Shown here: one piece after another, positions 1,841-39,145 of the stretch
Layout: every line of letters begins with the position of its first letter
Numbering within the stretch: the stretch's first letter is position 1
Source: Macrostomum lignano
Lineage: Eukaryota
DNA length: 64,000 nt
Reading direction: 5' to 3'
Assembly: GCA_002269645.1 (NCBI GenBank)
Contig: NIVC01001130.1
Span: forward strand, 1-64,000
Notes under the pieces: generated by a model
Told to the model about the DNA's origin: nothing
What the model saw: only the letters and a program-made list of their open reading frames with translations
Database searches by the model: none
Position numbers and translations under genes: made by a program

Positions 1841-2083
1841 AAATCTCCCTTTTTTACGAAAAAAACTCGTCCCGAGTTTTAACAATGAAATAAAAATCTT
1901 GGGTAATTGAATTATTCCACACTTTAACTTTAAATTGGTTACATAATTCTCTTTATTAACATATATGCACGTAATATACATTGTGTGTTAATAAAGGTTA
2001 GTGGTGTTGAGTCCGCGCTCAGTTAAAGTTAATCATATCTTCTGCCGGGGATACCTGCTGTCCTCGCGCTGCTGCCGAGGCAT

Positions 2084-2697: not shown

Positions 2698-2767
2698 CTG
2701 TGGGCGATAGGTATAGGTATAGTTAGAACGATTGAGGATTATTCAAGATACGTAACAAGCATATGTT

Positions 2768-3436: not shown

Positions 3437-3478
3437 AATTGTCGTCAATTTGTCGCTGTCTTTGTGTCGCTCGGATTA

Positions 3479-3541
3479 GTCGCCTTTTACGACAAGCTTG
3501 CGAAGCTGTAGTGCTATTCTTTATCCCGGTCACTACACGGG
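3479..3541 (-). other. Putative H-type RNA pseudoknot plus two small hairpins in the pol/RING-A spacer
   Basis: CCCG/CGGG stem; loop UGUAGUG pairs with downstream CACUACA; compensated to UGUAGAG/CUCUACA in other copies. Confidence 0.65.
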
Positions 3542-3556
3542 GTTGTTCTCGAAACT

Positions 3557-6500: not shown

Positions 6501-7114
6501 TGCACTTCATTGTTGCCTGTCGTCATTAATGGGGCACTGGCTTCCCATTGCATTCCGCACCGCAAAAGGTCTTCTTCGGTTTCGATATTTTCACGCAGAA
6601 GTCTATCCCGAAGTGACGGCTGTGCGTTGTTTATTACGTGCAGGATGAGGTTTTGTTCGCGATCCATCAATCGTTGTCTTTATCTGGCGGCCAATTCTGC
6701 CGCTCCCAGTGGCGGTTGGTCCGCAGCTTGCAGCGGTGGCTGATGCAGTGCCTTAATTATCTGGCGGATATCGTCCACAAAGGCGAGGAAGGATTCTGTT
6801 GCTTGCATCCTTCTGTTATGTAACTTGTGCAGCAGCACTGATCTGTTTGTGCCGCAACGGTTGAAATGCGCGCGCAGTTGAATGATTAGTGCTGGATAAT
6901 TTTGCTGTGTTGCTGCATCCAGCTTGCCGTAAATTTCTCGCGCAGTACCTTGGAGAAGAGGTGGCAGCAGCTGTGCCTTCTCTGGATTTTGTAGGTTGTA
7001 TTCCCTACATACCAGGTCAAAATGGTCGACAAATGTGTTAAAATCTTTCTCCATCGAGAAAGTACCGACCGTTTCTTTGATGTCTCTGTGTACCGTTGGA
7101 TTGCGCCGCCCCAT
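3557..7114 (-). pseudogene. Copy 1 polyprotein: Gag-linker-signal peptide fused in frame to the RNase H end and integrase by a ~3.9 kb internal deletion; frameshift near 6680
   Basis: ORF 6680-7114 (capsid N-half) plus ORF 3557-6670 (CCHC, acidic linker, WLYWIIVILLIAVV, junction TKPKMITL/QTNNRL, HHCC, D-D-E, GPY/F-like). Confidence 0.9.
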
Positions 7115-7810
7115 GTTGTTGATAGGATAGAACGGTAGTTCAAGATCTGGATCGATTTGTAACGGATCGTCCAGTGTGGTGTTTGCCTCGGAATAAACCT
7201 CGACTGTAACGAATTGCCTTGTGGTGTCGATTTGTTATTCGCTGGCCTCGGATGCGGTGTGGCTTGCTGCCACTGGTTGTCCTCAAATGAACTTGTTCTG
7301 TTCGCTTGCTGATTTCGCACTTATGCGGCGTCCCGCAAAGTGTATCTTCAAGTTGGGATGGACTTGTCTTTTGCTTTGCAAAGGCTTTTTCTCGTCTGTG
7401 ATTCTCTCTCTTTGTCAATTAACTCCGCTCTTCACGAAGTTTCAATTAATTTCGGTTTGTTTTAGTTTTTGTGCCGGCAAAGTGTTTCAGTTATTTTTTG
7501 TTTGTTTTGCGTCGACGATTTTTATTTTCGGTTTGTTTTCAGTGTACCGATGAATTTAATTTCGGTTTATTTTAAACTCACACTTGCTCGAGCTCGTCAA
7601 AACAAAAATTTAACACGCGTGCTCAAACTGTACTCAAATTGGACAGGTGCTCAAACCTGTACACCAAATTTTTACTCGAGTTTCACAACGTACGGACTTA
7701 AAAAGTGTTAACTCTAACACGTGCGCGCAAAATTAATGAAGTCGCTCTGTCGTCACGTTACAATAGCTTGATCAGGGCTATTGCTCAAAGTTTGAGTAGT
7801 GCCGAGAGGG

Positions 7811-7821
7811 CGAGATCACCA
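7811..7821 (-). promoter_or_regulatory. Primer binding site (TGGTGATCTCG), possibly tRNA-Trp; also next to LTRs at 22953, 26872, 37563, 48016
   Basis: Starts TGG 2 nt after the LTR end; pairs with a typical eukaryotic tRNA-Trp 3' end (CGGGGUCACCA) using two G-U pairs. Confidence 0.6.
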
Positions 7822-7823
7822 AT

Positions 7824-8693
7824 TGATGTGTTCCTTATTACCCGACTTTCGATAATCAAGGAACAATCACTTCTAGCTCAATAGCTAGGCAACCCAGTAA
7901 GTCAATTAAAGGTACTTCTTACCTTGACGTCGCTTGCAGATATCTCTTCTGTAGTCTTCGAGTAGATCTCGCTTGGATCTCTATGTGATCTCGTAGATCA
8001 GGCGCCTTGATTCTTCAGTTGCTCTGGTCCTGGTTCCTCTTGTACTTCCGATAAGTTCCTCCGGCCGGTATCTTCAGTCAGGACCAATCAGAGGCCTCGT
8101 ATTAACAATGGGTACCCTGCGCCGAACTGCGGTTTGAATTAAGCCTCCTTCTTTTAGTAGTGCCTCGATGCACTCTAGGTATAGCTCCGGAAACCACTGA
8201 TAGTCCTCTAAGATCTATCAGGGGCAGTCCTTCTGGAGACTGCAACCAATGGAGTCTAAACAGACTCAAGAGTCTCAACAGACTCAAATAGACTCAAGTC
8301 TCAATAGACTTGAGCGAGACGTCTCTAACACAACGGGCGCAAATAAGGAAGGCTTACCGCGACGACTCGACCGAGTCTCGATTGACTTGGTGATCAGGAA
8401 GTCCTCCTAAGGCTTCCTCTTCGGAGCTTCTCCTCTCGTCGGGAGTTGGCTCCTGGTCCGCTTCGGACCGCTTGTATTTATAGGCAAGTTTTTGGTCCGG
8501 AATAGTATTATGACAATCCACGTGTTGCGCTAAAAGGGGAAATGGCTCATTGCGTATCATTTTGGTAACATCTTCTTCTGGTAGCGCAATTCATTCAAAG
8601 CTTAGGCGCGCATGCGTGTACTTACTTACTTGTAGTAGCATTATACGATTATCTTTTTTTAACCTTTTTTAACGGGAGGTAGAACACTCTACA
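7824..8693 (-). repeat. LTR type I (870 bp), 5' LTR of copy 1
   Basis: TG...CA termini; PBS adjacent; no PPT on the other side. Confidence 0.92.
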
Positions 8694-12168: not shown

Positions 12169-13042
12169 TGATGTGATCCTTATTACCCGACTTTCGATAA
12201 TCAAGGAACAATCACTTCTAGCTCAGTAGCTAGGCAACCCAGTAAGTCAACAGAAGGTATTCAATTACCTTGAGTCCTTGGAGATATCTCTTCGTTGTTG
12301 TTCTCGTGTAGATCTCGTGGTCTTCAATAGACAAGTTGACTTTCGATTGTAGATCGGGTCCGAATTTTCGTTTCTTCTTCTAGTATTTCCGGCCGGATTC
12401 TAACGCTCGGACCAATGGTAAGCTTCCGAATTAACAATGGGTACCCTGCGCCGAACTGCGGTCTGAATTAAGCCTTCTTCATCTAGTAGTGCCTCTCTGC
12501 ACTCTAGGTATGGCTCCGGAAACCACTGATAGTCCTCTAAGATCTATCAGGGGCAGTCCTTCTGGAGACTGCAACCAATGGAGTCTAAACAGACTCAAAA
12601 GTCTCAACAGACTCAAAAGTCTCAACAGACTCAAATAGACTCAAGTCTCAATAGACTTGAGCGAGACGTCTCTAACACAACAGGCGCAAATCAGGAAAGC
12701 TTACCGCAACAACTCGACCGAGTCTCGATTGACTTGGTGATCAGGGAGTCCTCCTAAGGCTTCCTCTTCGGAGCGCTCCTCTTCCGTGGGGAGAATGGCT
12801 CCGGTACCGCTTCAGATCGCTTGTATTTATAGGCAACTTTTTGTTCCAAAATAGCATCATTACAATTCTCGTGTTGCGCTAAAAGGGGAAAATGGCTCAT
12901 GGCGTATTATTCTGGTAACATCTTTTTCTGGTAGCGTGATTCATTCAAAGCTTAGACGCACATGCGTGTACTTACTTACTTATAGTAGTATTATACGATT
13001 ATCTTCTTTTTTCTGTTTTTGCGGGAGGCAGAACACTCTACA
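12169..13042 (-). repeat. LTR type I (874 bp), 3' LTR of copy 2
   Basis: TG...CA termini; PPT adjacent. Confidence 0.92.
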
Positions 13043-13285
13043 AAACCTCCCTTTTTTACGAAAAAACTCGTCCCGAGTTTTACCAATGAAATAAAAATCT
13101 TGGGTAATTGAATTATTCTACACTTTAACTTTTAAATTGGTTACATAATTCTCTTTATTAACATATTTGCACGTAATATACATTGTGTGTTAATAAAGGT
13201 TAGTGGTGTTGAGTCCGCGCTCAGTTAAAGTTAATCATATCTTCTGCCGGGGATACCTGCTGTCCTCGCGCTGCTGCCGAGGCAT

Positions 13286-13917
13286 TCAGCCGAAGCTTGT
13301 CCTGAGCAGGCTGCTCACCTGATGCGTGGTTCGCGCCACCAGGGATGCCACTGCCCTGTACAGCGACTGAAACATAGTGAATCGCGGATTCTCGGTCCGC
13401 TCCAGCAAAAGCAGATAGGCCTCTATGGTCGTAAGCGGTTCTGCTGTACGCACCATAGTCCTGGCGATGTCTAGTAACCACCGCCAGTCGGCCTGATGCT
13501 GAAGCGGCCATGGCCACGATCTTACGGCGACGGCCAGCTGTTCCAGGGTTAGCTCATCCGGCTCCGCCAGCGTTAGCTCCGGTACGGCGAGCATCGGCGC
13601 CAGTAGTACGGATGCTGTGTTGGACAGCGGAGCCAGGCACACGGTGCACGTCATGATGTCTCGTGCACCGTACCGCTGAAGACAGCTGAAACACACCCAA
13701 TGCCGATTTGAACAGAGTCGTACATTGGGCTGGTCGCCGCAAAGGGCACATTGGACCCGCGGTCTGCGACAGACGGGGCAGGCGGTAAGGATCGTCACGT
13801 CGCCAATTTCTCGCGCCCGTTCGTCGCAGGGGAAGCACACCTGGTGCCCCCATTCACAAGTCGGGAGCATCGGCTCCGTGCCTCGAGGCAGCAAGGACAG
13901 GTATCCATCTCGGTCAT
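13286..13917 (-). pseudogene. RING-B with a 1-nt deletion near the start
   Basis: ORF 13286-13894 has both RINGs; ATG at 13917 is out of frame (GGCTCCGTG vs GGCTCCCGTG in copy 1). Confidence 0.82.
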
Positions 13918-13987: not shown

Positions 13988-14656
13988 CTATCGGTGAGAC
14001 CTAAAAAGCCAAATAAAATAGCTACGTGAGAGCACTAATCGTTTAAGCGCGTGGCAGTATACGTGTAGCGTCCAGTGAAATGATTCATGGTCATGCAAAA
14101 ACTGCCGCAAATGTCGCTCAATCTCCAAGGGTGACATATGACGCAAAAATCCTTGATTTCTATGAGCATATAATAGTAGTTGTCGTCGCGAACGCTGAAA
14201 GAAGCGAGGTACTGGCCAAAACTCCAGCCGTCGTTCGATATTCATAGCGGTTAAGGTGTGCATAGTGTAAACGGATAAACAACGCGCTGGGTCAGGTATA
14301 ATACGACACCATTTCTTAAAAGTGCTTTCGCGGGGCATACTGTTACATAAGGGGCATCCTATAATGCCCCTACTAGCGGTTTGCTTCAAACAGTGCATGC
14401 AAATAAAATTTTGGTGGTTACAATATTGAAACGTGCGCCAAGAATAACAATAGGCGCATTGTCGCAAACTACCTCTACAGAGGGGACAATTCTGCCATGG
14501 CTGAATATAATGAGAATTGCTTAAACATTGTCCGCAAACTTTATGTTCGTTGATGCAAATAGTCGGTGGCTTGACAGCCAAGTCATCAGTTAAACATATC
14601 GGGCAGTCATATAGCTGCTGAGGTTGGGGCGCCTGTTTCGACAGTGCGTTGCCCAT
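13988..14656 (-). CDS. RING-A, intact (222 aa)
   Basis: MGNALSK; two C3HC4 RINGs; nearly identical to 2768-3436. Confidence 0.88.
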   Translation of the reverse strand: MGNALSKQAPQPQQLYDCPICLTDDLAVKPPTICINEHKVCGQCLSNSHYIQPWQNCPLCRGSLRQCAYCYSWRTFQYCNHQNFICMHCLKQTASRGIIGCPLCNSMPRESTFKKWCRIIPDPARCLSVYTMHTLTAMNIERRLEFWPVPRFFQRSRRQLLLYAHRNQGFLRHMSPLEIERHLRQFLHDHESFHWTLHVYCHALKRLVLSRSYFIWLFRSHR

Positions 14657-14776: not shown

Positions 14777-17460
14777 CTAGCGTGGTGGTAGGTTGTAGCC
14801 GTGCGGCTGGCTCACGTCTGTCGTTTGAGTCTCCTCGTGCTTCGTCGCGATGTGGCGGTTCGTTGATCGCGTGCGATCAGCGTTGTCTAATGTCGGTAGA
14901 AACGTCGCGGTGTCAGTGTTGATCTTCTTTAGTCGATGAATGTGTACGTAGAACTGGTGCTGATGTGGATCTTGTACATTAGCCAGGCGTGCCGTTGTCG
15001 GTGACGTTAGTTGGACCACTCGATAGGGTCCTTTATACTTCTGTGCATGTTTGTGCGTCTGCTGCGGCGGGTAGTGTAGTAAACGATGTCGCCGGCCGTC
15101 AGGGTTGTCGATCTCGCGTCGTTGCCGGTGGTCAGAGCCACCTGGTTGTCAATGTTGTGCTTGGCGATCTTCCATGCAAGGTGTAGTTGCGGGACGAATT
15201 TTTGAATGGAAGTCGGTACTTCCACGTACTGCGATGGTAGCAATTGCTGTGCGAGCAGATTCGGCGGTTGGAAGTCTCGTCCAAACATTAGGAAGAATGG
15301 CGTATTGTCCGTTGATCGATGAATAGCGCTGTTGTAGGCCATTGTTACAGATTGCAGGTAGATGATCCAGTCTTCCGGCTGTTGGTGCGCGAAATGTGTA
15401 ATCATCTCGTGCAGGTTGCGGTGAAACCGTTCAACCATGTTTGCCTTCGGATTTTAGGTCGATGTGTAGATCTGCGTAATGTTGAGAATCTTCACAACTT
15501 GCTGAAATAGTTAAGACGTAAAGTGCGATCCGTTGTCCGAGGTGAGGTTCTTCGGCGTGCCGTACTTGCAAATGATTTCGTTGAAGAAACTCATTGCTAT
15601 TGTCTGAGCTGTGATGTCCGGTATCGGTATGGCGATAGCAAACTTCGAGAAGATGTCCAAGGCGGTTAGGATGTAGGTGTAGGCGATGCCCTTGAGACAG
15701 CTCGGTGGCAGTGGTCCGGTGATGTCGATGCTTAGACAGTCCATTGTAGTCGACTTCGGAATGGACTGTAGCTGCGGTTTCTGTCGTCGTCCTGTCTTTG
15801 ATGCAGCACATGAATGGCAGTTGTTGCAATACTGCTTGATGTCGCCGTACATAGTTGGCCAAAAGTAGTATTGTTCCACTCTCGCGATGGTCTTTGCGGC
15901 CGACAGGTGTCCAGCGAGTGGGTTGTCGTGCAGCTCGTTGAGAATTGCTTGCCGAAACGAATATGGTACGTAGATCTTAGGTTTATTGTCGCTCATCCAG
16001 TAGAGCCGTGACTTATTGATTGTTAGGTGTTGTCGTTGCTTGCGTAGGAATTTTCGTTCCATGGGACTGAGTTTGATGTTCTTGTCGTCGTCTTTAACCG
16101 CTTGGTAGAAGTTGTCGCGCTCGGTTTCATCCACCAACTCCTTGATGTTAGGGATTGGATGAATGGCGTTGACTTCATAGGCTCTTGACAGGGCGTCCGC
16201 GGCTTTGTTGGTAATTCCTGGTTTGTAGACGAGTTTGTAGTTGTAATCCTGGATCTTGAGTGTCATCCTGATGAGTCGGTTGTTGGTCTGTCCTTTTGTA
16301 GTTACGACGTAGGTCAATGGTGCATGATCCGTGCGTACTATCGTCTGTATTGGAGAACCATAGATGTAGTAATGAAACTGTCGCAGGGCGAACAAGACTC
16401 CTAGTAGCTCTCGTTCCGTAGCTGACCACTTTGTTTCATTTGGTTTGAGTGCTCGACTGACGTAAGCAATAGGTCGTTCCTTCTTGTCCTCGGTTTCCTG
16501 TAGTAGGACTGCTCCGAGTCCCGTTCCTGAGGCGTCTGTCTCGATGATGAAGGGCTTGTCGAAGTCCGGATGCTGTAGCAGTGCGTCTGATGTCAGCTGT
16601 CGTTTGATTTCGTCGAAACTTTCCTGTTGTCTCTGTGTCCAGTTGTCTTGCTTCCATTTGTCGAACTTGAGCAGGTCGTACAGTGGCTTTGCTGTCTTTG
16701 CGAAGTTAGGTAAGAACTTCCTGAAGTATTGCGCAAGTCCAAGGAATGATTGGACCTTCGTTATACTGGTTGGCGTAGGAAACTTCTTCACCTTTTCCAC
16801 GTTGTCTGGGTCCGGTGAGATTCCTTTGGCTGTCACCTGATGTCCCAGGTAACGCACGTTGTCTCGGAAGAATTTGCATTTAGTTGGTTGTAGCTTCAGA
16901 CCTTGGCGTTGAATGAGCGCTAGGGCCTTCTCCGTAGCTTCGTAGAGTCGCTCGAAATCCTCTCCGTAGGCTAAAATGTCGTCGACATAGTGCAGCAGGT
17001 TCGTGCATCCTGCTAGCATGTATGCTGTGAGTCGACTCATCGTTGCTGGGCTGTTGCTAAGTCCCATCGGCGATCGGTTGTACTCATAGACTTGTCCATT
17101 GTAGGTCTTGAAAGCCGTGTACTGTCGTGACTCTTTCTCAATTTCAATTTGCCAAAATCCATGACGTAGGTCGAACACTGTGAACAATTTTGCCGTGTTG
17201 AGCTTTGCTAGTAGTTCGGAGATCTTCGGTAGGCTCTGCTGATCCGTCGGTATGTACTTGTTCAACAGTCTGAAGTCGCATACGAGTCGTCTTTCGTTTG
17301 TCTCCTTCTTCTGTACCAGTAGGCACGGTGAGGAGTAAGCCGAAATAGCTTTGCTGATGATGCCGTGCTTTAGCATTTTATCGATGATTTCGTCAAAGTG
17401 TTGTTGCAGATGCTTGGCGATCGGGTACGGCTTGCACTGAATTGGTTCCGTGTGCGTAGA
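14777..17460 (-). pseudogene. pol: pol (RT-RNase H-IN) of copy 2, disrupted
   Basis: YVDD; ETDASG...ERELL...RTDH; H-H-CxxC; SIDITGP/SDNG/VERFH; stop at 15511, frameshifts near 15080 and 17455. Confidence 0.93.
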
Positions 17461-20400
17461 AGCTTGATTTCCTGTTTAATGTCTTTAGCTCGTCCGATGT
17501 CGTAATCATGATGGCAGAAAGCTTCGTTGTACTTCCACAACAGTTGTCGAACTTTCTTCTTTTGTTGTTCCGTAATCGGGCTGTCGTCCAGGTTGATTTT
17601 CTTTTGGAAATCTTCCTCCGTTATTCGTGGAGCCACGTGCTCAATCAGCATAACTGATGCCTGAGTGTTGAGATGACCGATGCACATTCCTTGTCGTAGA
17701 TGAACCATTTCCGCGTTCGGGTTGAAGATTTGTACTGGCAGCTGTTTATCTTTTGCAACCAGCACTAGTGCCGTAGGCATCATGATTTGATGTTTCGCCG
17801 TGACTCTTCTGTGCGGATCAAATATCATTGCTTCATCTGCCGCGCTGGTCGCTTTCGCTCTGACCCAGCATGCGCTTTCAGGCTGGATGATGACATCCTG
17901 CTGCAGAGTTACTTTCGGTAGTACTCGAATCTGATTGATCAGTGGTTGCTCCACCGTGTCGATCCTAAATGTTTGCTTGTTGAAGTCGAAGGTCAATGGT
18001 AGTCGAAGCTGTTTGAACGTGTCTATTCCAACGATGACGTCTTGGTTTGGTAGTCTGTCGATGATGTACGTCGGGACCGTCAGCTGTTTATTAGCAATTT
18101 TCAAGTCAATATCTGCTTTTCCTAGGATGTTGAGCGAATGTCCTCCTGCTCCTGCAACTGCGATTGCTGCTGGTCGTACCGCGAGTCGTAGCTTGTTGCA
18201 TAATTGTTGCGAGATGACTGTGATCGAGCTGCCTGAATCCAGTAGTGCTCGACATGGCAAGTTGTTGACAATGACCTGAGCCATTGCTTTGCCAATCTCG
18301 GCGTGTAGCGTGCAGACGTAGTTTTCCGGCCATTTTGGCTCGTGTTGTTCAGGCTGATAAGTAGGTGGCTGAATTCTCGGTGCTGTTGGTGTTGTCGGAA
18401 TCGATGGATACATACATCGATGGATGGGTGCATCCTCTGTCAATTCCAAGTTGTTGTCTTCTTCCCTTGGTATCTTCTGCATGATGGCGTTCACTGTTCG
18501 TTTCGCTGTGGGACAAGTGTTGCTGAAGCATCGTACTATAGACGAGATGATAAAGATCGCCGTAACTATCCATACCACACAGGCGCTGTAGAAGATGAAT
18601 CCTTGATATAGACTGCCTCTTCCGTTAAGCAGCTCCAAGAAGCTGTTTGTCCAAAACGATTGGATGGCGTTGTCCATCGATACAAGGACCGGGAAAGTGC
18701 GTGTTCCCGTTCCTTTATTCTTTCGTGTGAAGAGTTGACGAATCATCTTCCGTTGAGTGATGAACGCTTGCAAGAAGTCGTTGATGGTCCATCCTGGTGT
18801 TATTTCATCGAGTTGGATATCGGCGAATGGCGTGTACTTCGTTCTGTTGAACCGTATCTTCAGATCGTCCATATCGTACGTTTCATCGACAATCACCTCT
18901 GGTTCTGTGATGTTCGCTGTCGTTCCTGTCGTTTTAATGACATGTAGTGCATCGTCCAGTTGATAGTAGTTTGCTGCAGTGGTGCAAGGTCTTGGTATTG
19001 CGGTGCCAACGATGATGTTGTGTACCGTGTCCAAGAATCCTTGTATTCTTTTGCCTTCGTAGAATGCCTCAATTCTCGGCTTGTCGTAGCAAGTTGTTGA
19101 AGTGTTCGACGGTAAGATGTTGAAGTGCTGTATCGGCGTACACTTGTATATCAGGAGATGTCCATATATCGGAATTGCCAGAACCTCTCTCATTCCCGTG
19201 ATCTTGCGAAATGTCATCGTAGGGTTGACATAGTAGTTCTGTCTTGCGTAGTTCAAGTTGATTGCGTGCATTTTGCAAGTTAGCTGAACCAGTGACCGGT
19301 GTAAGTGGTTTAGCTGGTTATGCAGGTTGTGATCCAGCGCAGTGATCTTTGCTGACAGTAGTCGGTTCGACACCAGTCGTGGACGTTCTATGTCGCGTCG
19401 TTGCCTTTCTTGTTGTTGATACGTTCCGTTTATGATCGCCAGGAAGGTTCGTTTGTCGTCATCCTTTACATAGACTGGTATTTCTTGCTCCGAAATGAAT
19501 AGCGTCTTGTCCGTATTCTTGCATTTGAGTTTCTGTTCGACCGGCTTCTTTTGGAACGTCAAGGCCAAGTCTCCTGCTTTTGCCAAAAACGTATTCGACA
19601 GTAGTCCTCCTTCCACTGTGTGATACTTTTGAAGCTTGCAGTCAATTTCCGGCTCAACTTCCCATGCGAAGAAATATTGTCGTGACTTGTACGGTTCCTC
19701 ATAGTGTGATTGTGCTCTGTGCTCAATCTGCCATCGATAGTCTTGATGATATGTTGGACTCAGTGGTAGACTGTGTAGTTCTTCCTTCCGTAGAATTGGT
19801 GTTGGACACCAGCCTTCACTGTATCGACATTCGCTTAGTTGCAGCTGTAACGATTCCATTTTCTCGTACGGATTGTAGTAGAATGGAATATTTCTGATCA
19901 AGTAGCTGTTGCGTGCCATATATTCTTTCCATTTTCCGAAGAAGTGAATATATCGACCGTTGGCTGAATTCTTTGTTCTGAACAGCTGTGCGTTGCCGAC
20001 CTTCTCGTCGGGTTCCAATTCACCATCCTTTGAAAATAGTGTTTGGTTCCATTGTAGGCATTCCGCGTGTGACACATGTAGCTCATGTTGTTTAAATCGG
20101 ATCCGGTTCCATTGTCCGCGCCAAACTTTCTCCACCAGGTGCTTGTCTCTGAAGCACACTATTCCGTGTTGTCGATGCTTTTTGATGTTAGCCTTGTAGA
20201 GATCAAGTGTAATCTTCTTTGGTTTTGTCTGGTTTGTCTTGAAGTAGCTGCATTTGATGTCGGTTGGTATCTTGTAAATCATCGGTTGGATATGCGCATC
20301 CGTTGGACAGATCATTGGCTTTTCCGTTGCCGTTGCTTTGGCGACTACTGCTATCAGTAGTATCATGATGATCCAGTATAGCCAGTTTTTCCACTTCTTG

Positions 20401-20486
20401 GACCTTGCCGTTGTCTTTGCTGGCATTGGCCGCGATTGCCATTCGTTATCCTCCATGTCCGCATCGTATTCTTTCGGTTGTTCCAT
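17370..20486 (-). CDS. env: Signal peptide - gB-like Env ectodomain - TM - late-domain tail - aspartic protease - RT start, one open frame (1038 aa)
   Basis: Hydrophobic leader ~20327-20385; N-glycan sequons NQT/NGT/NTS/NIT/NRT; RQRR furin site 19395-19406; TM ~18534-18602; LLDSGSS. Confidence 0.88.
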   Translation of the reverse strand: MEQPKEYDADMEDNEWQSRPMPAKTTARSKKWKNWLYWIIMILLIAVVAKATATEKPMICPTDAHIQPMIYKIPTDIKCSYFKTNQTKPKKITLDLYKANIKKHRQHGIVCFRDKHLVEKVWRGQWNRIRFKQHELHVSHAECLQWNQTLFSKDGELEPDEKVGNAQLFRTKNSANGRYIHFFGKWKEYMARNSYLIRNIPFYYNPYEKMESLQLQLSECRYSEGWCPTPILRKEELHSLPLSPTYHQDYRWQIEHRAQSHYEEPYKSRQYFFAWEVEPEIDCKLQKYHTVEGGLLSNTFLAKAGDLALTFQKKPVEQKLKCKNTDKTLFISEQEIPVYVKDDDKRTFLAIINGTYQQQERQRRDIERPRLVSNRLLSAKITALDHNLHNQLNHLHRSLVQLTCKMHAINLNYARQNYYVNPTMTFRKITGMREVLAIPIYGHLLIYKCTPIQHFNILPSNTSTTCYDKPRIEAFYEGKRIQGFLDTVHNIIVGTAIPRPCTTAANYYQLDDALHVIKTTGTTANITEPEVIVDETYDMDDLKIRFNRTKYTPFADIQLDEITPGWTINDFLQAFITQRKMIRQLFTRKNKGTGTRTFPVLVSMDNAIQSFWTNSFLELLNGRGSLYQGFIFYSACVVWIVTAIFIISSIVRCFSNTCPTAKRTVNAIMQKIPREEDNNLELTEDAPIHRCMYPSIPTTPTAPRIQPPTYQPEQHEPKWPENYVCTLHAEIGKAMAQVIVNNLPCRALLDSGSSITVISQQLCNKLRLAVRPAAIAVAGAGGHSLNILGKADIDLKIANKQLTVPTYIIDRLPNQDVIVGIDTFKQLRLPLTFDFNKQTFRIDTVEQPLINQIRVLPKVTLQQDVIIQPESACWVRAKATSAADEAMIFDPHRRVTAKHQIMMPTALVLVAKDKQLPVQIFNPNAEMVHLRQGMCIGHLNTQASVMLIEHVAPRITEEDFQKKINLDDSPITEQQKKKVRQLLWKYNEAFCHHDYDIGRAKDIKQEIKLLRTRNQFSASRTRSPSICNNTLTKSSIKC

Positions 20487-20529
20487 TGGCTGATTCAGGC
20501 GGAAGGCTTCTGATTCGCTTTGCTTTTTG

Positions 20530-22236
20530 TTATTTCAGTATCTTCGTCTGCGGCTTCTTCCGATGTTTCGGTTGTTTCACTCCATTGCGTTTGGTATCTT
20601 TTCTCTGTCTTGTAGTCGACCGTTTGAATATAGGCTTCACCATTTTGTTTGTATCGGATCTCGTAGCATTCGTCGCTGTCGGAACTCGGCTTTCTTTCAT
20701 CTGTTCTTTTTCCATTTCTTCATCTTTCCATTGTATTTCGTAGCCTTGATCGCTGTCGGAACTTAGATTTTCCGCTCTCAGTTCTTCCTGCATTCCTTCT
20801 TCGGCTCGGTATCCATTCGTATCATCATGCACTTCGCAGTCGTGATCGTTGCCGTAACTTATACATTCTTCTTCTTCCTTCATTTCTTTGTCTTTCGTGC
20901 TTGTTTTGTCGTCATCCACTGTTGTCGATTCATAGTTGATTTCTCTGCCAGTCTTCATCTTTTCTTCGTTGCCGGTGTCGCTCTCCGTCTCCTCCCTTTT
21001 CTTGTGATTTACTTTCTTCCTGTTTTCTCTGCTGTCTCCGGTGGTCTCTTTTAATTCGATCATTTCGGTTTCATTCGCCTCTTCTGTCTTGTCAGTGTTG
21101 TCCTCGTGCGTCGTCTTCTTTTCGATCAAGCTGATGTCAAGTTCCGGGACTGTGAAGTCCATTTCCAAGTCGTTAATTGTGAAGACTTGCTGTTTTTGCT
21201 GCTCATTTTCCGGTGTGTACGTGAATGCATTCGCGTATCGTGGCATTGCTTGCGTTGGCTGTCTTTGTGTGTACCTGGCGTTGCGTGGCCTGTAGCCATT
21301 ATTTCTGAAGCGGCCTTCGTTTCCGAAGCGGCCACCATTTCCGGAGCGGTCATTATTTCCGAAGCGTCTATCATTTCCGAAGCGTCTTATGCCTTGTTGT
21401 TGGCGATTTTGATATTGCTGCCCTGGTTTCTGCGGCTTCTGATTGTTGAATATCTGTCGCGGCTTGTCGTATCTTGTTGACCAATGAGGACAATTAATCT
21501 GATAATGTCCTTCTTGTCCGCAGTAGTAACATCTGGCTGAGGCTTGTTCATTTCGTCTTTTTTGTTCGGCGATAGCAGCTCTCTGGTGCTGCATTAACTT
21601 GTTTAATTGCTGCGTCAGTTTCTGCACTTCATTGTTGCCTGTCGTCATTAATGGGGCACTGGCTTCCCATTGCATTCCGCACCGCAAAAGGTCTTCTTCG
21701 GTTTCGATATTTTCACGCAAAAGTCTATCCCGAAGTGACGGCTGTGCGTTGTTTATTACGTGCAGGATGAGGTTTTGTTCACGATCCATCAATCGTTGTC
21801 TTTCTCTGGCGGCTAATTCTGCCGCTCCCAGTGGCGGTTGGTCTGCAGCTTGCAGCGGTGGCTGATGCAGTGCCTTAATTATCTGGCGGATATCGTCCAC
21901 AAAGGCGAGGAAGGATTCTGTTGCTTGCATCCTTCTATTATGTAACTTGTGCAGCAGCACTGATCTGTTTGTGCCGCAACGGTTGAAATGCGCGCGCAGT
22001 TGAATGATTAGTGCTGGATAATTTTGCTGTGTTGCCGCATCCAGCTTGCCATAAATCTCTCGCGCAGTACCTTGGAGAAGAGGTGGCAGCAGCTGTGCCT
22101 TCTCTGGATTTTGTAGGTTGTATTCCCTACATACCAGGTCAAAATGGTCGACAAATGTGTTAAAATCTTTCTCCATCGAGAAGGTACCGACCGTTTCTTT
22201 GATGTCTCTGTGTACCGTTGGATTGCGCCGCGCCAT
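20530..22236 (-). CDS. gag: Gag (Ty3/Gypsy capsid, CCHC knuckle, FGND repeats) plus acidic linker; frameshifted near 20690 in this copy
   Basis: FNTFVDHFDLVC...ESFLAFVDDIR capsid-like helices; CYYCGQEGHYQINC. Confidence 0.9.
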   Translation of the reverse strand: MARRNPTVHRDIKETVGTFSMEKDFNTFVDHFDLVCREYNLQNPEKAQLLPPLLQGTAREIYGKLDAATQQNYPALIIQLRAHFNRCGTNRSVLLHKLHNRRMQATESFLAFVDDIRQIIKALHQPPLQAADQPPLGAAELAARERQRLMDREQNLILHVINNAQPSLRDRLLRENIETEEDLLRCGMQWEASAPLMTTGNNEVQKLTQQLNKLMQHQRAAIAEQKRRNEQASARCYYCGQEGHYQINCPHWSTRYDKPRQIFNNQKPQKPGQQYQNRQQQGIRRFGNDRRFGNNDRSGNGGRFGNEGRFRNNGYRPRNARYTQRQPTQAMPRYANAFTYTPENEQQKQQVFTINDLEMDFTVPELDISLIEKKTTHEDNTDKTEEANETEMIELKETTGDSRENRKKVNHKKREETESDTGNEEKMKTGREINYESTTVDDDKTSTKDKEMKEEEECISYGNDHDCEVHDDTNGYRAEEGMQEELRAENLSSDSDQGYEIQWKDEEMEKEQMKESRVPTATNATRSDTNKMVKPIFKRSTTRQRKDTKRNGVKQPKHRKKPQTKILK

Positions 22237-22952
22237 GTTGTTGATAGGATAGAACGGTAGTTCAAGATCTGGATCGATTTGTAACGGATCGTCCAGTGTG
22301 GTGTTTGCCTCGGAATAACCCTCGACTGTAACGAATTGCCTTGTGGTGTCGATCTGTTATTTGCTGGCCTCGAATGCGGTGTGGCTTGCTGCCACTGGTT
22401 GTCCTCAAATGAACTTGTTCTGTTCGCTTGCTGATTTCGCACTTAGCTCGTATGCGGCGTCCCGCAAAGTGTATCTTGAAGTGGACTTTGTCTTCTTGCT
22501 TTGCAAAGGCTTTTTTCTCTTCCTTGACTTTTCTCGTTTGTCAATTAACTCCGCTCTCCACGAAGTTTCAATTAATTTCGGTTTTGTTTTAGTTTTTGTG
22601 CCGGCAAAATGTTTCAGTTATTTTTTGTTTGTTTTGCGTCGACGATACTTTTATTTTCGGTTTGTTTTCAGTGTACCGATGAATTTAATTCGGTTTTGTT
22701 TTAAACTCACACTTGCTCGAGCTCGTTAAAACAAAATTTAACACGCCTGCTCAAACTGTACTCAAAATTGTCAGGTGCTCAAACCTGTACACCAAAATTT
22801 TTACTCGAGTTTCAAAACGTTCGGACTTCAAAAGTGTTAACTCTAACACGTGCGCGCAAAATTAATGAAGTCGCTCTGTCGTCACGTTACAATAGCTTGA
22901 TCAGGGCTATTGCTCAAAGTTTGAGTAGTGCCGAGAGGGCGAGATCACCAAT

Positions 22953-23804
22953 TGATGTGTTCCTTATTACCCGACTTTCGATAATCAAGGAACAATCACT
23001 TCTAGCTCAGCAGCTAGGCAACCCAGTAAGTCAACAGAAGGTATTCAATTACCTTGAGTCCTTTGGAGATCTCTCGGAGTAGTTCTCGATTTGCTTTAGT
23101 TGCAGGTGTAGTCACTTCTGACTTTCGTTTGTAGATCGGGTCCGATTCTTCTTTCTTCTTCAAATAGTTCCGGCCGGATTCTGTCGCTCGGACCAATGGG
23201 AAGCTTCCGAATTAACAATGGGATCCCTGCGCCAAACTGCGGTCTAAATTAAGCCTCCTTCTTCTAGCAGTGCCTCTATGCACTCTAGGTATAGCTCCGG
23301 AAACCACTGATAGTCCTCTAAGATCTATCAGGGGCAGTCCTTCTGGAGACTGCAACCAATGGAGTCTAAACAGACTCAAGAGTCTTAACAGACTCAAATA
23401 GACTCAAGTCTCAATAGACTTGAGCGAGACGTCTCTAACACAACGGCGCAAATAAGGAAGGCTTACCGCAACAACTCGACCGAGTCTCGATTGACTTGGT
23501 ATATCAGGAAGTCCTCCTAAGGCTCCCTCTTCGGAGCTTCTCCTCTCGTCGGGAGTTGGCTCCTGGTCCGCTTCGGACCGCTTGTATTTATAGGCAACTT
23601 TTTGATCCAAAATAGCATCATTACAATCCACGTGTTGCGCTAAAAGGGGAAAATGGCTCATGGCGTATCATTTTGGTAACATCTTTTCCTGGTAGCGTGA
23701 TTCATTCAAAGCTTAGGCGCACATGCGTGTACTTACTTACTTATAGTAGCATTATACGATTATCTTCTTTTAACCTTTTTTAACGGGAGGTAGAACACTC
23801 TACA
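22953..23804 (-). repeat. LTR type I (852 bp), 5' LTR of copy 2
   Basis: TG...CA termini; PBS adjacent; outer flank is RING-B sequence. Confidence 0.92.
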
Positions 23805-25027
23805 AATACTCGTGAGTCCAGGGTGCTCGCGAGCCAGGCTCCTGGAAATGCCAAGGACGATACGCCATGACTCCTGATGCCGGTGCGGCCACGGCCACGA
23901 CCGGACGGCGATGGACAATTGTTCAAAGGTCAAGCTGTCCGGCTCCGCCAACGTCAACTCTGGCACTGGTGTTATTGTCGCCAGCATCAGCGCCGTCGAA
24001 TGGTTGACAGGAGCCAGACATTCGGTTCAGATCTCAATATCTCTTGCACCGTACCTCCGGAGACAGTTTGCACAAACCCAATGTCGGTTGGAACACACCT
24101 GAACGTGGGGCTATTCGCCGCATACCACACAGGTAGCCCGCGCGCGACGGCAGACCGGGCAGGTAGATAGCATGGTAACATTGCCATCCACCTGCTGCGC
24201 CATGGCGTCGCAGGAGACACACACGCGGTGTCCCCACTCACACGTCGGAATCATATAGTCCCGATTCTCGAGACAGCAGGGGCATACGTCGTTGTTCTCG
24301 GCCATCTGCGGGTTTTATGTAATCATCGTAATTAAAGCAGTCAGGGTGAAGCATACAGTCTACTGTGTATACCGCAAAAGCCATATAAAATAACTGCGTG
24401 ACAAAATTAGTCTTTTTAGCGCGTGGCAAAAATGTGCAATGTCCAGTGAAACGCGTGATGGGCATGCAAAAATTGTCGTAGATTTCGTTCTATATCCAGG
24501 GGTAACATATGACGCAATATTCCTTGATTGTTATGTGCCTACAGTAGTAATTCATTGCGTGAGCGTCGAGCGAAACGAGGTACTGGCCAAAAGTCTAGCA
24601 ACTGTTCGATACGTATTGCGGGTAGTGTTCGAATATTATCAACATGTAAGCATCGGTTGGCGTCGGGCTTGATGCGACACCACTTCTTAAAGGTGCTGTC
24701 CGTCGGCATACTGTTACAGATAGGGCACCCTATGATGCCCCTACTGGCGGTGCGTTTCAAGCATTGCATGCAGAAAAAATGATTTTGACGACAGTATTGA
24801 AAAGTGCGCCACGAGTAACAATAGGCGCACTGCGTCAGACTACTCCTACATAGGGGGCAGCTTTGCCAGGGTTGGATATGATGCGCGTCACACAAGCACC
24901 TTCCGCATATGCGATGATTATTTGTACAAATGGTTGGTGGTTTTATATGCAGGTCATCTTCCAAAAAGACAGGGCATTCATTGAGTTGCTGTGGCTGGGT
25001 CGCCAGTCTAGACTGTGCATTGCCCAT
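23805..25027 (-). pseudogene. Degraded RING-B (23805-24305) and RING-A (~24418-25027) of deleted copy 3
   Basis: MAENNDVCPCC...; MGNAQSR...FWPVPRF; internal stops and a deletion. Confidence 0.8.
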
Positions 25028-25173
25028 AGTCGTTAGCCCAGCGTCAGTTGCAGTTATGAAGTAGACTGTAGAGTTCGCTTGTGGAGTCGCTCGGATTAGT
25101 CGCCTCTTACGACAAGCTTGCGAAGCTGTAGAGCTATTCTGACCCGGTCTCTACACGGGTTTGTTTTCGCAAC

Positions 25174-26158
25174 TTAACGAGGTCGCAGATTATAGCCGTG
25201 CGGCTGGCTCTCGTTCGTTGTTTGGGTCTCCTCGTGCTTCGTTGCGATGTGGCGGTTTGTCGAACGCGTGCGGTCGGCATTGTCAAGTGACGGTAGAAAT
25301 GTCGCCGTGTCAGTGTTGATCCTTTTCAATCGATGAATGTGCACGTAGAATTGATGCTGATGTGGATCTTGCACATTAGCCAGGCGTACCGTTGTTGGTG
25401 ACGTTAGTTGGACCACTCGATATGGTCATTTGTACTTCTGCGCATGTTTATGCGTCTGCTGTGGCGGGTAGTGCAGGTAGACGATGTCGCCGGCCGTCAG
25501 GGTTGTTGATCTCGTGTCGTTGCCGGTGGTCAGAGCCACCTGATTGTCAATGTTGTGCTTGGCGATCTTCCATGCGAGGTGTAGCTGCGTGACGAATTTT
25601 TGAATGGAAGTCGGTACTTCCACGTACTGCGATGGTAGTAATTGTTGTGCGAGCAGATTCGGCGGCTGGAAGTCTCGTCCAAACATTAGGAAGAATGACG
25701 TGTTGTCCGTTGATCGATGAATAGCGCTGTTGTAGGCCATTGTTACGGATTACAGGTAGATGATCCAGTCTTCCGGCTGTTGATGCGCGAAGTGCGTGAT
25801 CATCTCGTGCAGATTGCGATGAAACCGTTCAACCATGTTAGCTTTTGGATTGTAGGTCGACGTGTAGATCTGCGTGATGTTGAGTATCTTCACAACTTGC
25901 TGAAACAGTTTAGATACAAATTGTGACAACAATTGTGACAATGGATCGAAATCTACGATCCATCAGCTTGCCGTAAATTTTTCGTGCAGTACCTTGGAGA
26001 AGAGGTGGCAGCAGCTGTGCCTTCTCTGGATTTTGTAGGTTGTATTCCCTACATACCAGGTCAAAATGGTCGACAAATGTGTTAAAATCTTTCTCCATCG
26101 AGAAGGTACCGACCGTTTCTTTGATGTCTCTGTGTACCGTTGGATTGCGCCGCGCCAT
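25174..26158 (-). pseudogene. Copy 3 core: Gag N-terminus joined to the integrase C-half by a large deletion
   Basis: MARRNP...IYGKL, filler, then QLFQQVV...GYNLRPR. Confidence 0.85.
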
Positions 26159-26871
26159 GTTGTTGATAGGATAGAACGGTAGTTCAATATCTGGATCGAT
26201 TTGTAACGGATCGTCCAGTGTGGTGTTTGCCTCGGAATAAACCTTGACTGTAACGAATTGCCTTGTGGTGTCGATCTGTTATTCGTTGGCCTCGAAGTTG
26301 CGGCTTGCTTCCACTGGTTGTCCTCAATTGAACTCGTTTTGTTCGCTTGCTGATTTCGCACTTATGCGGCGTCCCGCAAAGTGTATCTTCAAGTTGAAGT
26401 GGACTTGTCTTTTGCTTTGCAAAGGCTTTTTTCTCTTCTTTGACTTTTCTCGTTTGTCAATTAACTCCGCTCTCCACGAAGTTTCAATTAATTTCGGTTT
26501 TGTTTTAGTTTTTGTGCCGGCAAAATGTTTCAGTTATTTTTTGTTTGTTTTGCGTCGACGATACTTTTATTTTCGGTTTGTTTTCAGTGTACCGACGAAG
26601 TTAATTTCGGTTTTGTTTTTAAACTCACACTTGCTCAAGCTCGTTAAAACAAAATTTTCAACACGCGTGCTCAAACTGTACTCAAATTTGACAGGTGCTC
26701 AAACCTGTACACCAAATTTTTACTCGAGTTTTAAAACGTACGGACTTCAAAAGTGTTAACTCTAACACGTGCGCGCAAAACTAATGAAGTCGCTCTTTCG
26801 TCACTTTACAATAGCTTGGCCAGGCTATTGCTCAAAAGTTTGAGTAGTGCCGAGAGGGCGAGATCACCAAT

Positions 26872-27859
26872 TGATGTGTTCCTTATTACCAGTCTTTTGA
26901 TAATCAAGGAACCACCACTTCTAGCTATTTAGCTAGGCAACCCAGTTATCAACAAGGTATTACTTACCTCGACTTTCCTCAGAGATATCTCTTCTTAATT
27001 CGCGCGGTAGATTCTCGTTGATCTCGTCTGTAGATCCTTCGGCGATCGCGTAGACCAGGTTCTGTGTGTCTCCTGTTTCGGGCCCTTTGCTTCTTTGTTA
27101 CTTCCGATGAAGTAACGTCCGGTCGGTAATGTAGTCAGGGCCAATCAGATTCTTCTTGTCGACAATGGGATCCCTGCGCCAAATATAGCGGTTTCTCTTA
27201 AGCCTTCTTCTTCTAGTGGTGCTTCTCTGCACTCTACTAGGTATGCTCCGGATATCGCTAGTAGGTCCTCTACGATCTACTAGGGTAGTCCTTCGGGAGA
27301 CTACGACCACAGGAGTCTCAACAGACTCAAAAGTCTCAATAAACTTAATTAAACGCAAGTCTCAATAGACAAGAGCGAGCCGGCTCTAACAACAATAGGC
27401 GCAATGAAGAAAGGCTTACCGCAACTATCAGACCGTCTTAGTTGACTGGTTACTAGTATGTCGTCCTATCGACGCACTCTTCGGAGCGCTCCTCTTCCGT
27501 GGGGAGAATGACTCCGGTGCCGCTCTGGGCCACTTATATTTATAGGCATTTTGTCCATGAGTCACGTGTTGCGCTGTAAGGTGAAATAAGATTGATTGTG
27601 GTTAAATATAGTAACATGACTCATGCTGTTACTATAAATAGTAACATGAATCATTCTGATGCTATAAATAGTAACATGAATCACTATGTCGCCATATGTT
27701 GCAACATGATTCATCCGCTATAAATAGCCACATGATTAATATGCTATAAATAGCAACTTACATCATTTTCTATCTTAAGTGCGCATGCATGCACTTGCTT
27801 ACTTACAGTAGTATCTATGATTTTTACTTTTTACTTTTATCGGGAGGTAGAACACTACA
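26872..27859 (-). repeat. LTR type III (988 bp), shared between copies 3 and 4
   Basis: PBS on one side and PPT on the other; U3 with repeated AAATAGTAACATGA-like units. Confidence 0.88.
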
Positions 27860-28107
27860 AATTCTCCCTTTTTCACGAAAAAACTCGTCCCGAGTTTAAA
27901 CAATGAAATAAAACAGTGGTTTGTACCATCTAGTAGTAAAAAATGTGCCAAATCTGTATTTATACATAAGGCATCGTGTATAAACTCTACTATTCGTGAC
28001 TGTTAGTGTTCGTTCAGTCATGTTCGTGCGCTGTCCTGGCTCTTCTGGTTGAGTCCAAGTTTCGCCGTAGGCCTACCGCACCTTGTCGCCGTGAGCTGTT
28101 GAGGCAT

Positions 28108-28743
28108 TCAGCCAAAACTGATCTGTAGCGTGTGTGTGACTTGCTGTGCAGCTCGGGCAACCAAGCAGGCCACCGCCCAGAACAGTGGCTGAAACCACAG
28201 GAACCTCGGGTCCTCCGTCCGCTCCAGCAGGATCAGGTAGCAGTCTATCTCTGTGGTCGCTACCATCTCCCTGACCCTTGTCCTGGCAATATCCAATAGG
28301 TGCTGCCAGGCGGCCAAGTGCCGGGACGACCATGGCCAAGACCTGACGGCGACCGCCAGTTGTTCCAGCGTAAGCGCGTCTGGTTCCTTCAGCGCCAACT
28401 CCGGTATCACTGACATTTGATCGAGCAGGAGGGACGCGGGGCCGGTCAGCTGGGCCAGGCAGACGGTACACGTGCGAATGTCACGTGCACCGTAACGCTG
28501 CAAACATGTAAAACACAGCCAGTGCCTGCTTGCACAGGCTTGGATGTTAGGCTGGTCGCCGCAGATGGCACAAAGGACCCTCGGCCTGCGGCAGACCGGA
28601 CAGGCGAAGAGCATTGTTACTTCGCCGTTTACCTCTCGAGCCCGCTGGTCGCATGGGAAGCACACTTGGTGCCCCCATTCACATGTCGGGAGCATCGGCT
28701 CCCGTACTTCCAGACAGCAGGGGCAGGTGTTGTAGTTGTCCAT
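28108..28743 (-). CDS. RING-B, intact (211 aa from the ATG at 28743)
   Basis: CPCC-x10-C-x3-H-x2-C-x2-C...CPVC and CAIC-x8-C-x3-H-x2-C-x2-C-x11-CTVC; CCCGCAG directly before the ATG. Confidence 0.87.
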   Translation of the reverse strand: MDNYNTCPCCLEVREPMLPTCEWGHQVCFPCDQRAREVNGEVTMLFACPVCRRPRVLCAICGDQPNIQACASRHWLCFTCLQRYGARDIRTCTVCLAQLTGPASLLLDQMSVIPELALKEPDALTLEQLAVAVRSWPWSSRHLAAWQHLLDIARTRVREMVATTEIDCYLILLERTEDPRFLWFQPLFWAVACLVARAAQQVTHTLQISFG

Positions 28744-28805
28744 CTGCGGGTGACATACATTATTGTTATTAACCTGAGGACTTGTGGCGTTAACAGTTGA
28801 ATATG

Positions 28806-29474
28806 TTACTGGGGATATCGCAAAAGCCATATAAAATTGCTGCGTGACAAAATAAGCCGTTGAAGCGCGTAACAATAGATTCGCAAGGACCAGTGAAACG
28901 CATTATGTGCACTTAAAAACTGCCTAAGGAGCCTATCTATAGCAAGAGGTGCCATATGACGCAGTAGACCTTGATTTTCATGTGCGTATAAAAACAATTC
29001 ATAGCGCGATCTCTGAGCTGAGCGCGGGACTGGCCAAAACTCCAGTCGTTGCTCAATAGTAATAGCGGGTAAGGTGCAAATAGTATCGAGGGTTAAAATA
29101 CGCATAGGCTCGGGTTGTATGCGACACCACTGCCTGAAGGCGCGTCCGTACGGTATGTCGTTACAAACGGGACACCCGACGATGCCTCGTTTGGTTGTTC
29201 TTTTAAAGCATTGCATGCAAATAAAATGTTCCTGTCTACAAAATTGAAATGTGCGCCAGGAGTAACAATAATCACACTGTCTAAGACTACTTCTACATAA
29301 CGGGCAATTTTGCCAGGGTTGAATATAATGAGCGTTACTTAAACATTGTCCGCATATGCGATGTCCATTTACACAGATAATCGGTGGCTTGACAGCCAAG
29401 TCATCAGTTAAACAAATTGGACAGTCATATCGCTGCTGAGGTTGGAACCCCTGTTTTGACAGTGCGTTGCCCAT
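28806..29474 (-). CDS. RING-A, intact divergent allele (222 aa)
   Basis: MGNALSK; all zinc ligands of both RINGs conserved despite many substitutions. Confidence 0.88.
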   Translation of the reverse strand: MGNALSKQGFQPQQRYDCPICLTDDLAVKPPIICVNGHRICGQCLSNAHYIQPWQNCPLCRSSLRQCDYCYSWRTFQFCRQEHFICMQCFKRTTKRGIVGCPVCNDIPYGRAFRQWCRIQPEPMRILTLDTICTLPAITIEQRLEFWPVPRSAQRSRYELFLYAHENQGLLRHMAPLAIDRLLRQFLSAHNAFHWSLRIYCYALQRLILSRSNFIWLLRYPQ

Positions 29475-29587
29475 AATCGTCTTCAATTAGTTAGTGTCTT
29501 GGTCGCTCAGATTAGTCGCCTTTTACAAGCTTGCGAAGCTGTAGTGCTATTCTTATCCCGGTCACTACACGGGGTCGTTCTCGAAAT

Positions 29588-38906: not shown

Positions 38907-39145
38907 AAATCTCCCATGTTTACAAAAAACTCGTCCCGAGTTTTAAAGATGGCAAGGTTTTGGAGGAAGAAAAGTTTCAAGTATCTCGATATATCTGTAG
39001 GGAGTATATTTAAATTTGTGAACTTTACATTGTGTACTTTTTAGTAAGGGTTAATACTGTCCGCGTATTTCTACAGTAATGTTCAGTAAATGCATCTGGC
39101 CGTCCGGTCACATACGCCTGCCTGCCGAATGCGCCGCCGAGACGT

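Follow-up and report, generated by a model that had tools for sequence, protein, structure and literature searches.

The gag-env-pol order is one polyprotein frame in a flatworm genome. In the 64-kb stretch of Macrostomum lignano DNA analysed here (the window), Gag, a class III Env and PR-RT-RH-IN share a single frame of ~2,490 codons, and nine of the 80 env matches in the element's own genome run in one stop-free frame from the Gag start to the integrase C-terminus. Stop to stop, five of these frames have 2,535–2,538 codons, two have 2,480 and two have 2,502–2,503, the last pair representing a sister family whose Env is 65% identical. These whole genomic frames, together with the tiling of junctions in the window, bear out the gag-env-pol ORF of ~2,500 codons proposed in a preliminary description of this DNA. 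We consider it likely that the element is a recently multiplying Ty3/gypsy GAG-ENV-POL errantivirus of M. lignano that operates by the mechanism proposed below.

The window is an array of Ty3/gypsy LTR elements, with every copy on the minus strand. Apart from copy B, they are the following:

988..8693, minus strand: copy A, with LTR-PBS-Gag-linker-signal, RH-IN, both RING ORFs and LTR; most of env/PR/RT is deleted and the second RING ORF is frameshifted
23805..26869, minus strand: copy E, with PBS, Gag start, a large deletion, the IN end and broken RING ORFs
26872..37563, minus strand: copy C, with signal peptide and Env N-terminus deleted and several stops; both RING ORFs are open
37849..48016, minus strand: copy D, with most of Gag deleted; linker-Env is open, followed by a frame change in the tail, and PR-RT-RH-IN is open

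Copy B was preliminarily placed at 14777–22236, but it reaches beyond both ends of this interval, where two LTRs, a PBS, a polypurine tract and two more ORFs (13286–14656) are found. Its features, in the order of the element, are as follows:

22953..23804, minus strand: 5' LTR, TGTAG...CATCA, 852 nt, doubling as the LTR that closes the deleted copy E, which lies upstream
22939..22950, minus strand: PBS, 12 nt, 2 nt past the LTR
21400..22236, minus strand: Gag, start ATG at 22236, capsid-like region
21490–21531, minus strand: CCHC knuckle of Gag
20400..21399, minus strand: acidic linker, with two frame changes here and open in copy A
20325..20396, minus strand: internal signal-like segment, with basic n-region, hydrophobic core (KD 2.07) and small-residue end
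18603..20324, minus strand: Env ectodomain, class III, gB/mononegavirus G-like
19395–19406, minus strand: furin-type RQRR in the ectodomain
18546..18602, minus strand: transmembrane segment (KD 2.39)
18282..18545, minus strand: putative cytosolic tail, directly before PR
18399–18410, minus strand: YPSI in the tail, late-domain-like (YPxI)
18378–18389, minus strand: PTAP in the tail, late-domain-like
18357–18368, minus strand: PPxY in the tail, late-domain-like
18021..18281, minus strand: aspartic protease, catalytic motif at 18228–18245
14777..17475, minus strand: RT-RNase H-integrase, with frame changes and two stops
16978–16989, minus strand: YVDD of RT
13988..14656, minus strand: accessory ORF 1, 222 aa, two RING-like Cys/His arrays and a C-terminal region
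13286..13917, minus strand: accessory ORF 2, ~211 aa, two RING-like arrays
13046..13057, minus strand: polypurine tract
12169..13042, minus strand: 3' LTR, 874 nt

The two LTRs of copy B are 92% identical, and its flanks carry no target-site duplication. Hallmarks of Ty3/gypsy elements (Metaviridae) are present, namely TG...CA LTRs with PBS and PPT and the Pol order PR-RT-RH-IN; the integrase has H2C2 plus core, and pol stops at 14777. By similarity only, RT is nearest to Ty3 (E 1e-66), followed by the 'Enzymatic polyprotein' 8r0s (1e-45), foamy-type Pr125Pol (1e-40) and MLV-type enzymes (about 1e-34).

Copy B itself is broken: its reading frame changes near 20690, 20528, 17457 and 15078, and stop codons lie near 15513 and 15456. 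Copies free of the breaks at 15078, 17457, 20528 and 20690 occur, however, in the contigs of 4/4, 4/4, 4/4 and 3/4 public runs, respectively. For each domain junction, two or more copies of the window stay in frame across it: A and B from CCHC to linker, A and D from linker to signal, B and D over signal-ectodomain-TM, B and C from TM to PR, and C and D from PR to RT. The five open frames on which the preliminary description had built its case are all present as described, on the minus strand; the one at 3557–6679 is indeed open, but it is a large internal deletion at ~5073 that carries it on into RH/IN. The breaks lie at differing homologous coordinates from copy to copy, and the nine genomic frames are stop-free. 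Public proteins of the same family agree with this, one (P0068; 1,914 aa) spanning signal to IN and another (P0001), 94% identical in Env, spanning ectodomain to IN. The same layout, when sought beyond the family, was also found in distant relatives: CCHC-Env-PR-RT stands in a single chain in 7 of the 25 long proteins examined, from five unrelated clusters. A single-protein metagenome scan for related loci returned zero relatives.

Env is, at the level of sequence, under strong purifying selection (dN/dS 0.06–0.08). Its ectodomain has 12 Cys and six N-glycosylation sequons, and an alignment-based AlphaFold model (mean pLDDT 79; a single-sequence fold with pLDDT 29.5 was set aside) matches KSHV gB with E 1.8e-22 and Nyavirus G with E 3.6e-24 in Foldseek, while a profile match to EBV gB has E 1e-17. 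Exactly two strongly hydrophobic segments (Kyte-Doolittle above 2, 19-residue window) are present in the polyprotein, one on either side of the gB-like ectodomain. They fit the two-pass topology suggested earlier, in which the membrane placement itself is inferred. We infer that the internal signal-like segment is cleaved. The linker that precedes it is acidic (30% D/E, measured in copy A; dN/dS 0.33–0.44), and Gag lacks Gly2.

Late-domain-like motifs of the YPxI, PTAP and PPxY types seem undescribed in the Env tail of such elements, as we did not find them in print. A post hoc, alignment-anchored test on 28 of 53 alignment rows, the window protein among them, found such motifs in 10 of the 28 tails, against a mean of 1.8 and a maximum of 7 in 1,000 shuffles; the other 18 are without any. 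When the closest sequences were dropped (17 tails), P[TS]AP alone clearly exceeded the shuffles. YPSI would fit a YxxPhi sorting signal just as well as a late domain.

The two RING ORFs probably encode accessory ubiquitin ligases or adaptors. ORF 1 starts with a sequence that fits MGxxxS (myristoylation-type) and is open in copies A, B and C, with one stop in D. Its paralogue ORF 2 (24–31% identical) has a frame change near its start in copy B and is open in C (28108–28743) and D (39146–39781). Nine Cys and one His are invariant over both paralogues, and dN/dS of 0.12–0.26 points to purifying selection, with two RING1 pairs giving no ratio because dS is saturated. All scores against Pfam RING models fall below the curated cut-off (best E 7.5e-6, 26.4 bits versus 29.3), and the best match in an Atlas search was RING-type (score 0.91, low recognition). 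A search among proteins of 106–389 aa, a weak one, found no homologues beyond the own genome. Accessory ORFs of this kind are not mentioned in the available main text of PMC13524379 or in the main text of PMC5408684; a double-RING gene pair in such an element seems undescribed, no description having been found in the literature. Many dispersed copies have their RING ORFs cut short, and the ORFs would therefore be dispensable for intragenomic copying. Contig depth is lower over the RING region; depth cannot rank genes and divergent cassettes fall under the 85% cut-off, and the difference is given no weight here.

In the mechanism we propose, translation would begin in the cytosol, and the internal signal would thread the ectodomain into the ER, to be cut on the lumenal side, with Gag and linker staying held by the signal anchor. 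Because Gag lacks Gly2, this anchor may take the place of a myristoylated matrix. The TM would halt transfer, leaving tail and Pol cytosolic; furin would cleave at RQRR within the ectodomain, and release of capsid, NC and enzymes would fall to the protease of the element. Gag and Pol would thus begin on the membrane of the Env trimer, and assembly would therefore be coupled to envelopment. The 1:1:1 ratio of Gag, Env and Pol and the membrane-tethered Pol suggested in the preliminary description may both be altered by splicing or fast proteolysis. The YPxI/PTAP/PPxY cluster of the tail, placed before PR as in HIV p6, may recruit ESCRT for budding. Only tentatively do we extend this to a 'complex' flatworm gypsy virus organised like an enveloped RNA virus, in which the internal signal, in place of a matrix domain, anchors Gag, the Env tail is a p6-like ESCRT late domain and the conserved double-RING pair (one myristoylated, Z-like) serves as matrix adaptor or anti-silencing ubiquitin ligase; copies spreading only within the genome would then shed the RING pair. 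On this tentative reading, the p6-like tail would suggest that env entered an ancestral Gag-Pol at a point between NC and its late domain.

Several alternatives have to be weighed. Since the window holds zero whole copies, one might suspect that tiling decayed or chimeric copies has produced the single ORF artificially, but nine individual genomic places carry everything from Gag start through Env to IN end in a stop-free frame and unrelated relatives have the same single-chain layout. The chance of such an artefact is negligible, and the nine frames rule it out. A less drastic reading, to which we give a minor but real share, accepts the single ORF but has most Gag or Gag-Pol made from RNAs, spliced or subgenomic, in which env is skipped or the message ends early; the ratio would then depart from 1:1:1 and most Pol would be free of the membrane. 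Capsids are generally known to need far more Gag than Pol, and the 3' RING ORFs would require a subgenomic or spliced RNA regardless. Against this, minus-strand intron ends cross env in 0 of the 15 joints listed, out of 57, the contigs being mute on levels; no slippery site is shared from CCHC to signal or within the tail, B and C having none and A and D a single A-run apiece; and single-ORF Gag-Pol elements such as Cer1 are known (PMC3315495, the available part of which has no passage on env in Cer1).

It is more doubtful still that Env makes no free virions and acts instead in membrane anchoring or cell-cell fusion, with capsids passing to neighbour cells or assembly held on the ER. Gag would be covalently joined to a membrane anchor from its synthesis, and particles are unreported in the accessible portions of the literature consulted. 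Four features of Env speak against this reading: its gB-like fold is complete, it has a furin site, it is under strong purifying selection, and its tail carries budding-type motifs.

The results provide direct genomic proof that the GAG-ENV-POL order is one polyprotein in a flatworm and supply specific, testable signals, namely an internal signal anchor, a furin site and a late-domain cluster ahead of PR. M. lignano permits RNAi and transgenesis, so frameshift-free assembly and movement of an env-bearing gypsy element can be studied in vivo. Among viral proteins, arenavirus Z combines a RING with myristoylation in a small protein; its likeness to ORF 1, which has two RING arrays, is a functional analogy, and homology is not claimed. 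HIV-1 p6 has PTAP and YPxL directly before PR, again a functional analogy; late-like motifs sit in Gag there and in the Env tail here. The nematode NERVs of Sacco et al. 2022 reportedly have a continuous gag-env-pro-pol ORF, an Env said to resemble Nyamiviridae glycoproteins and extra ORFs for a small hypothetical protein or an Upf1-like helicase, and are said to be monophyletic within chromadorean nematodes. The continuous ORF is found here too, and nyamivirus G proteins are among the nearest viral folds, but NERVs have nematode hosts and are not reported to carry a RING pair, while the nearest named proteins of our RING-bearing element are from a flatworm, outside the NERV nematode clade. 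The window element works like a NERV and is not classed as one.

The preliminary description knew of no element with this layout and gave env a place after pol, as a separate ORF, in retroviruses and errantiviruses. Taken as a rule without exception, the latter is too strong: Atlas virus (Belpaoviridae) has Env in a single stop-free polyprotein of 2,828 aa, differing from our element in its Gag-Pol-Env order, class II phlebovirus-like Gn/Gc and Bel/Pao RT (PMC9094657, as far as available). The env in the accessible part of 10.1101/825315 is likewise phlebovirus-type, and the available portions of PMC12801592 and PMC4604429 do not mention the env or layout of this element. Novelty fails because GAG-ENV-POL errantiviruses are already catalogued in nematodes, bryozoans and flatworms (Chary and Hayashi, PMC13524379), one of them from M. 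lignano and sharing our PBS; the architecture is not new. Although the available text of that paper does not state that gag, env and pol form one reading frame, our element shares with its gB-type errantiviruses gene order, gB-type Env, Ty3/gypsy Pol and multicopy state, and has the HSV/gB-type ectodomain between signal/TM and TM by which they are recognised. The element listed there, Platyhelminthes_Rhabditophora_Mlig_errantivirus_2, comes from the same species as the nearest named proteins of ours and has an identical 12-nt PBS, also 2 nt after the LTR, and an LTR of 863 nt (852–874 here). Its span from LTR start to pol stop, worked out from the table of PMC13524379 together with the 3,000-nt extension rule used there, is about 9,046 nt, compared with 9,028 here. 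The derived distance between pol stop and 3' LTR is about 680 nt, against about 1,735 in our element, and fits a copy with a shortened RING cassette. Judged by PBS, LTR length, spacing and species, the window family is very probably Mlig_errantivirus_2.

The single gag-env-pol ORF put forward in the preliminary description is real and was correctly read. All five open frames on which it was built were found, on the minus strand. The whole polyprotein ORF is present in none of the window copies; every junction is read through in frame by at least two of them, and the positions of the frame breaks differ from copy to copy. In public sequencing runs the four frame breaks of copy B are not common to other copies (in 4, 4, 4 and 3 of 4 runs, respectively). 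In the M. lignano genome, a stop-free frame that also spans the Gag start and the integrase end was found for 9 of the 80 env matches, a lower bound with scoring limited to the best candidates. These frames have 2,535–2,538 (five), 2,480 (two) or 2,502–2,503 codons (two, from a sister family whose Env is 65% identical), and they bear out the single ORF without the need of a consensus. Among related public proteins, P0068 spans signal to integrase and P0001 ectodomain to integrase. A search of the whole protein library with the ectodomain gave 55 matches, and CCHC, Env, protease (PR) and RT share one chain in 7 of the 25 long proteins examined. These seven fall into 5 unrelated clusters, and one of them is a 2,852-aa protein of M. 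lignano whose Env is ∼30% identical; some of these relatives are gene models, in which introns may go unseen, a caveat of which the own-genome frames are free.

By self-alignment, one LTR element family accounts for ≥93% of the window's first 52 kb, on a single strand; its copies A–F are arranged head-to-tail and nested, and LTRs contribute 12 starts and 10 ends. Copy B, which also has a PPT, is delimited as follows; no target-site duplication was found around its LTRs.

Features of copy B
22953-23804 and 12169-13042, (-), LTRs, 92% identical to each other
22939-22950, (-), PBS

Pfam matches follow the order CCHC, a weak Monjiviricetes fusion protein, protease, RT, RNase H, then integrase; among solved structures, Ty3 is the one closest to RT-RH. 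The unistrand array over 1-52000, with shared LTRs and nested insertions, resembles a piRNA-cluster-like or self-targeting array. A 2.1-kb repeat (36844-38924 versus 47299-49377, 99.8% identity; also 25961-27157, at 98.6%) reflects either recent tandem duplication or duplication in the assembly. In copies B, C and D, dS climbs along the element, from 0.04–0.07 in Gag through 0.12 in env and 0.47–0.56 in RT-IN to 1.0–1.9 in the RING ORFs, a gradient indicative of recombination between subfamilies, by which the 5' half is homogenised. A diverged subfamily remnant lies at 49804-51950 (-), with an LTR (∼70% identity), fragments of the Gag CCHC and of the linker, and the end of RING ORF 2. RING ORF 2 of copy D contains, on the other strand (39652-39663, +), a sixth exact PBS-like 12-mer, which is probably due to chance.

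The alignment-based structure model of Env (mean pLDDT 79) matches herpesvirus gB (Foldseek E 1.8e–22, TM ∼0.41) and also mononegavirus glycoproteins, nyamiviruses included, and the Env profile matched EBV gB (E 1e–17). Scanning of the copy B and copy D frames gave two strongly hydrophobic segments, signal-like (20325-20381) and TM (18546-18602), and borderline hydrophobicity (1.51) in one integrase stretch. The ectodomain carries six sequons and an RQRR site. Between copies, dN/dS of env (0.06–0.08) is as low as that of Pol (0.04–0.06), with the linker at 0.33–0.44. The relatives P0046 and P0010 have a NADAR domain upstream of Env in the chain, to which P0046 adds a poly(A) polymerase-like palm.

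The tail between TM and PR (18282..18545 (-) in copy B) holds YPSI, PTAP and PPxY within ∼18 residues directly before PR; copies B, C and D retain every one of these motifs, as do P0001 and P0068, the x of PPxY being variable. P[TS]AP, YPx[LI] or PPxY occurs in 10 of 28 relatives' tails (shuffled mean 1.8, maximum 7 in 1,000 shuffles), in a post hoc test that includes the query and the 28 of 53 alignment rows that passed the filter. Motif density in tails is ∼10 times that in the rest of the proteins; in an earlier version with 17 tails, P[TS]AP alone was clearly above shuffles. The papers listed by a literature query on late domains in the tails of gypsy elements were all retrovirus-centred.

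Sequence and standard membrane-protein biogenesis suggest how such a chain might be made. Gag and linker would be synthesised first, in the cytosol; the internal signal would then open translocation, leaving Gag on a membrane anchor after cleavage, and the TM would end transfer, keeping tail and Pol in the cytosol. Maturation would be completed by furin together with the protease that the element encodes. Output of Gag, Env and Pol would be equal only if splicing is absent.

The preliminary description had missed two paralogous ORFs located after the pol stop and before the 3' LTR, ORF 1 (∼222 aa; 13988..14656 (-) in copy B) and ORF 2 (∼211 aa; 13286..13917), each with two RING-like Cys/His arrays that score below the Pfam RING cut-off. 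Between subfamilies they are far more diverged than pol (64–74% amino-acid identity, dS 1.0–1.9 or saturated) and clearly under purifying selection (dN/dS 0.12–0.26, P from 1e–3 to 1e–28). ORF 1 starts with MGNALSKQ, which is of the myristoylation type, in all four full window copies. The genome listing for ORF 1 holds 150 matches, among them 25 almost complete ones with ≥60% identity (18 stop-free), ∼24 ending near codon 162 and ∼21 ending near codon 90. At the nine open-polyprotein places, both RING ORFs are open in five, the first alone in one, and the cassette is cut short in three; the sister family has ORF 1 homologues of ∼40% identity. The cassette is thus older than the split of the two families, yet dispensable for recent copying. 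No homologues outside the own genome were found among proteins of 106–389 aa, and literature searches turned up no description of the pair. A role as ubiquitin ligase or membrane adaptor is our guess.

Elsewhere in the window, an ORF at 53734-54309 (-), intronless over the stretch, is deoxynucleoside kinase-like (Pfam dNK E 4e–9, above cut-off); it adjoins a 141-aa ORF without a match and possibly belongs to another viral or mobile element. At 58536-58880 (-), an unrelated element is represented by a fragment of its retroviral-type aspartic protease. Long ORFs over 60963-61767, 62260-62815 and 63726-64000 are artefacts of repeated sequence: ∼45-nt tandem repeats, a simple repeat rich in pyrimidines, and one with a unit of 25 nt.

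M. lignano is the source of the nearest named proteins (88–99% identity). Sacco et al. 2022 reportedly described nematode elements in which gag, env, pro and pol form one continuous ORF. That work is cited in PMC13524379, whose accessible text places gB-type Env, in the order GAG-ENV-POL, in errantiviruses of Nematoda, Bryozoa and Platyhelminthes and tabulates 9 flatworm and 10 bryozoan elements. One of these is from M. lignano (16 copies, 863-nt LTR, PBS starting 2 nt after the LTR), and its PBS matches exactly at all five LTR-PBS junctions of the window, so the catalogued layout very probably extends down to this element's own family. No statement that gag, env and pol share a frame was found in that text; the figures, bioRxiv supplements or code repository may already annotate the single ORF. 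What seems new goes no further than the two RING ORFs, the motifs in the tail and the explicit proof, for a flatworm, of a single frame. The layout, proposed as novel, is not: GAG-ENV-POL is catalogued (PMC13524379), and Atlas virus likewise holds Env inside a single polyprotein, but in the order Gag-Pol-Env (PMC9094657, in the part accessible).
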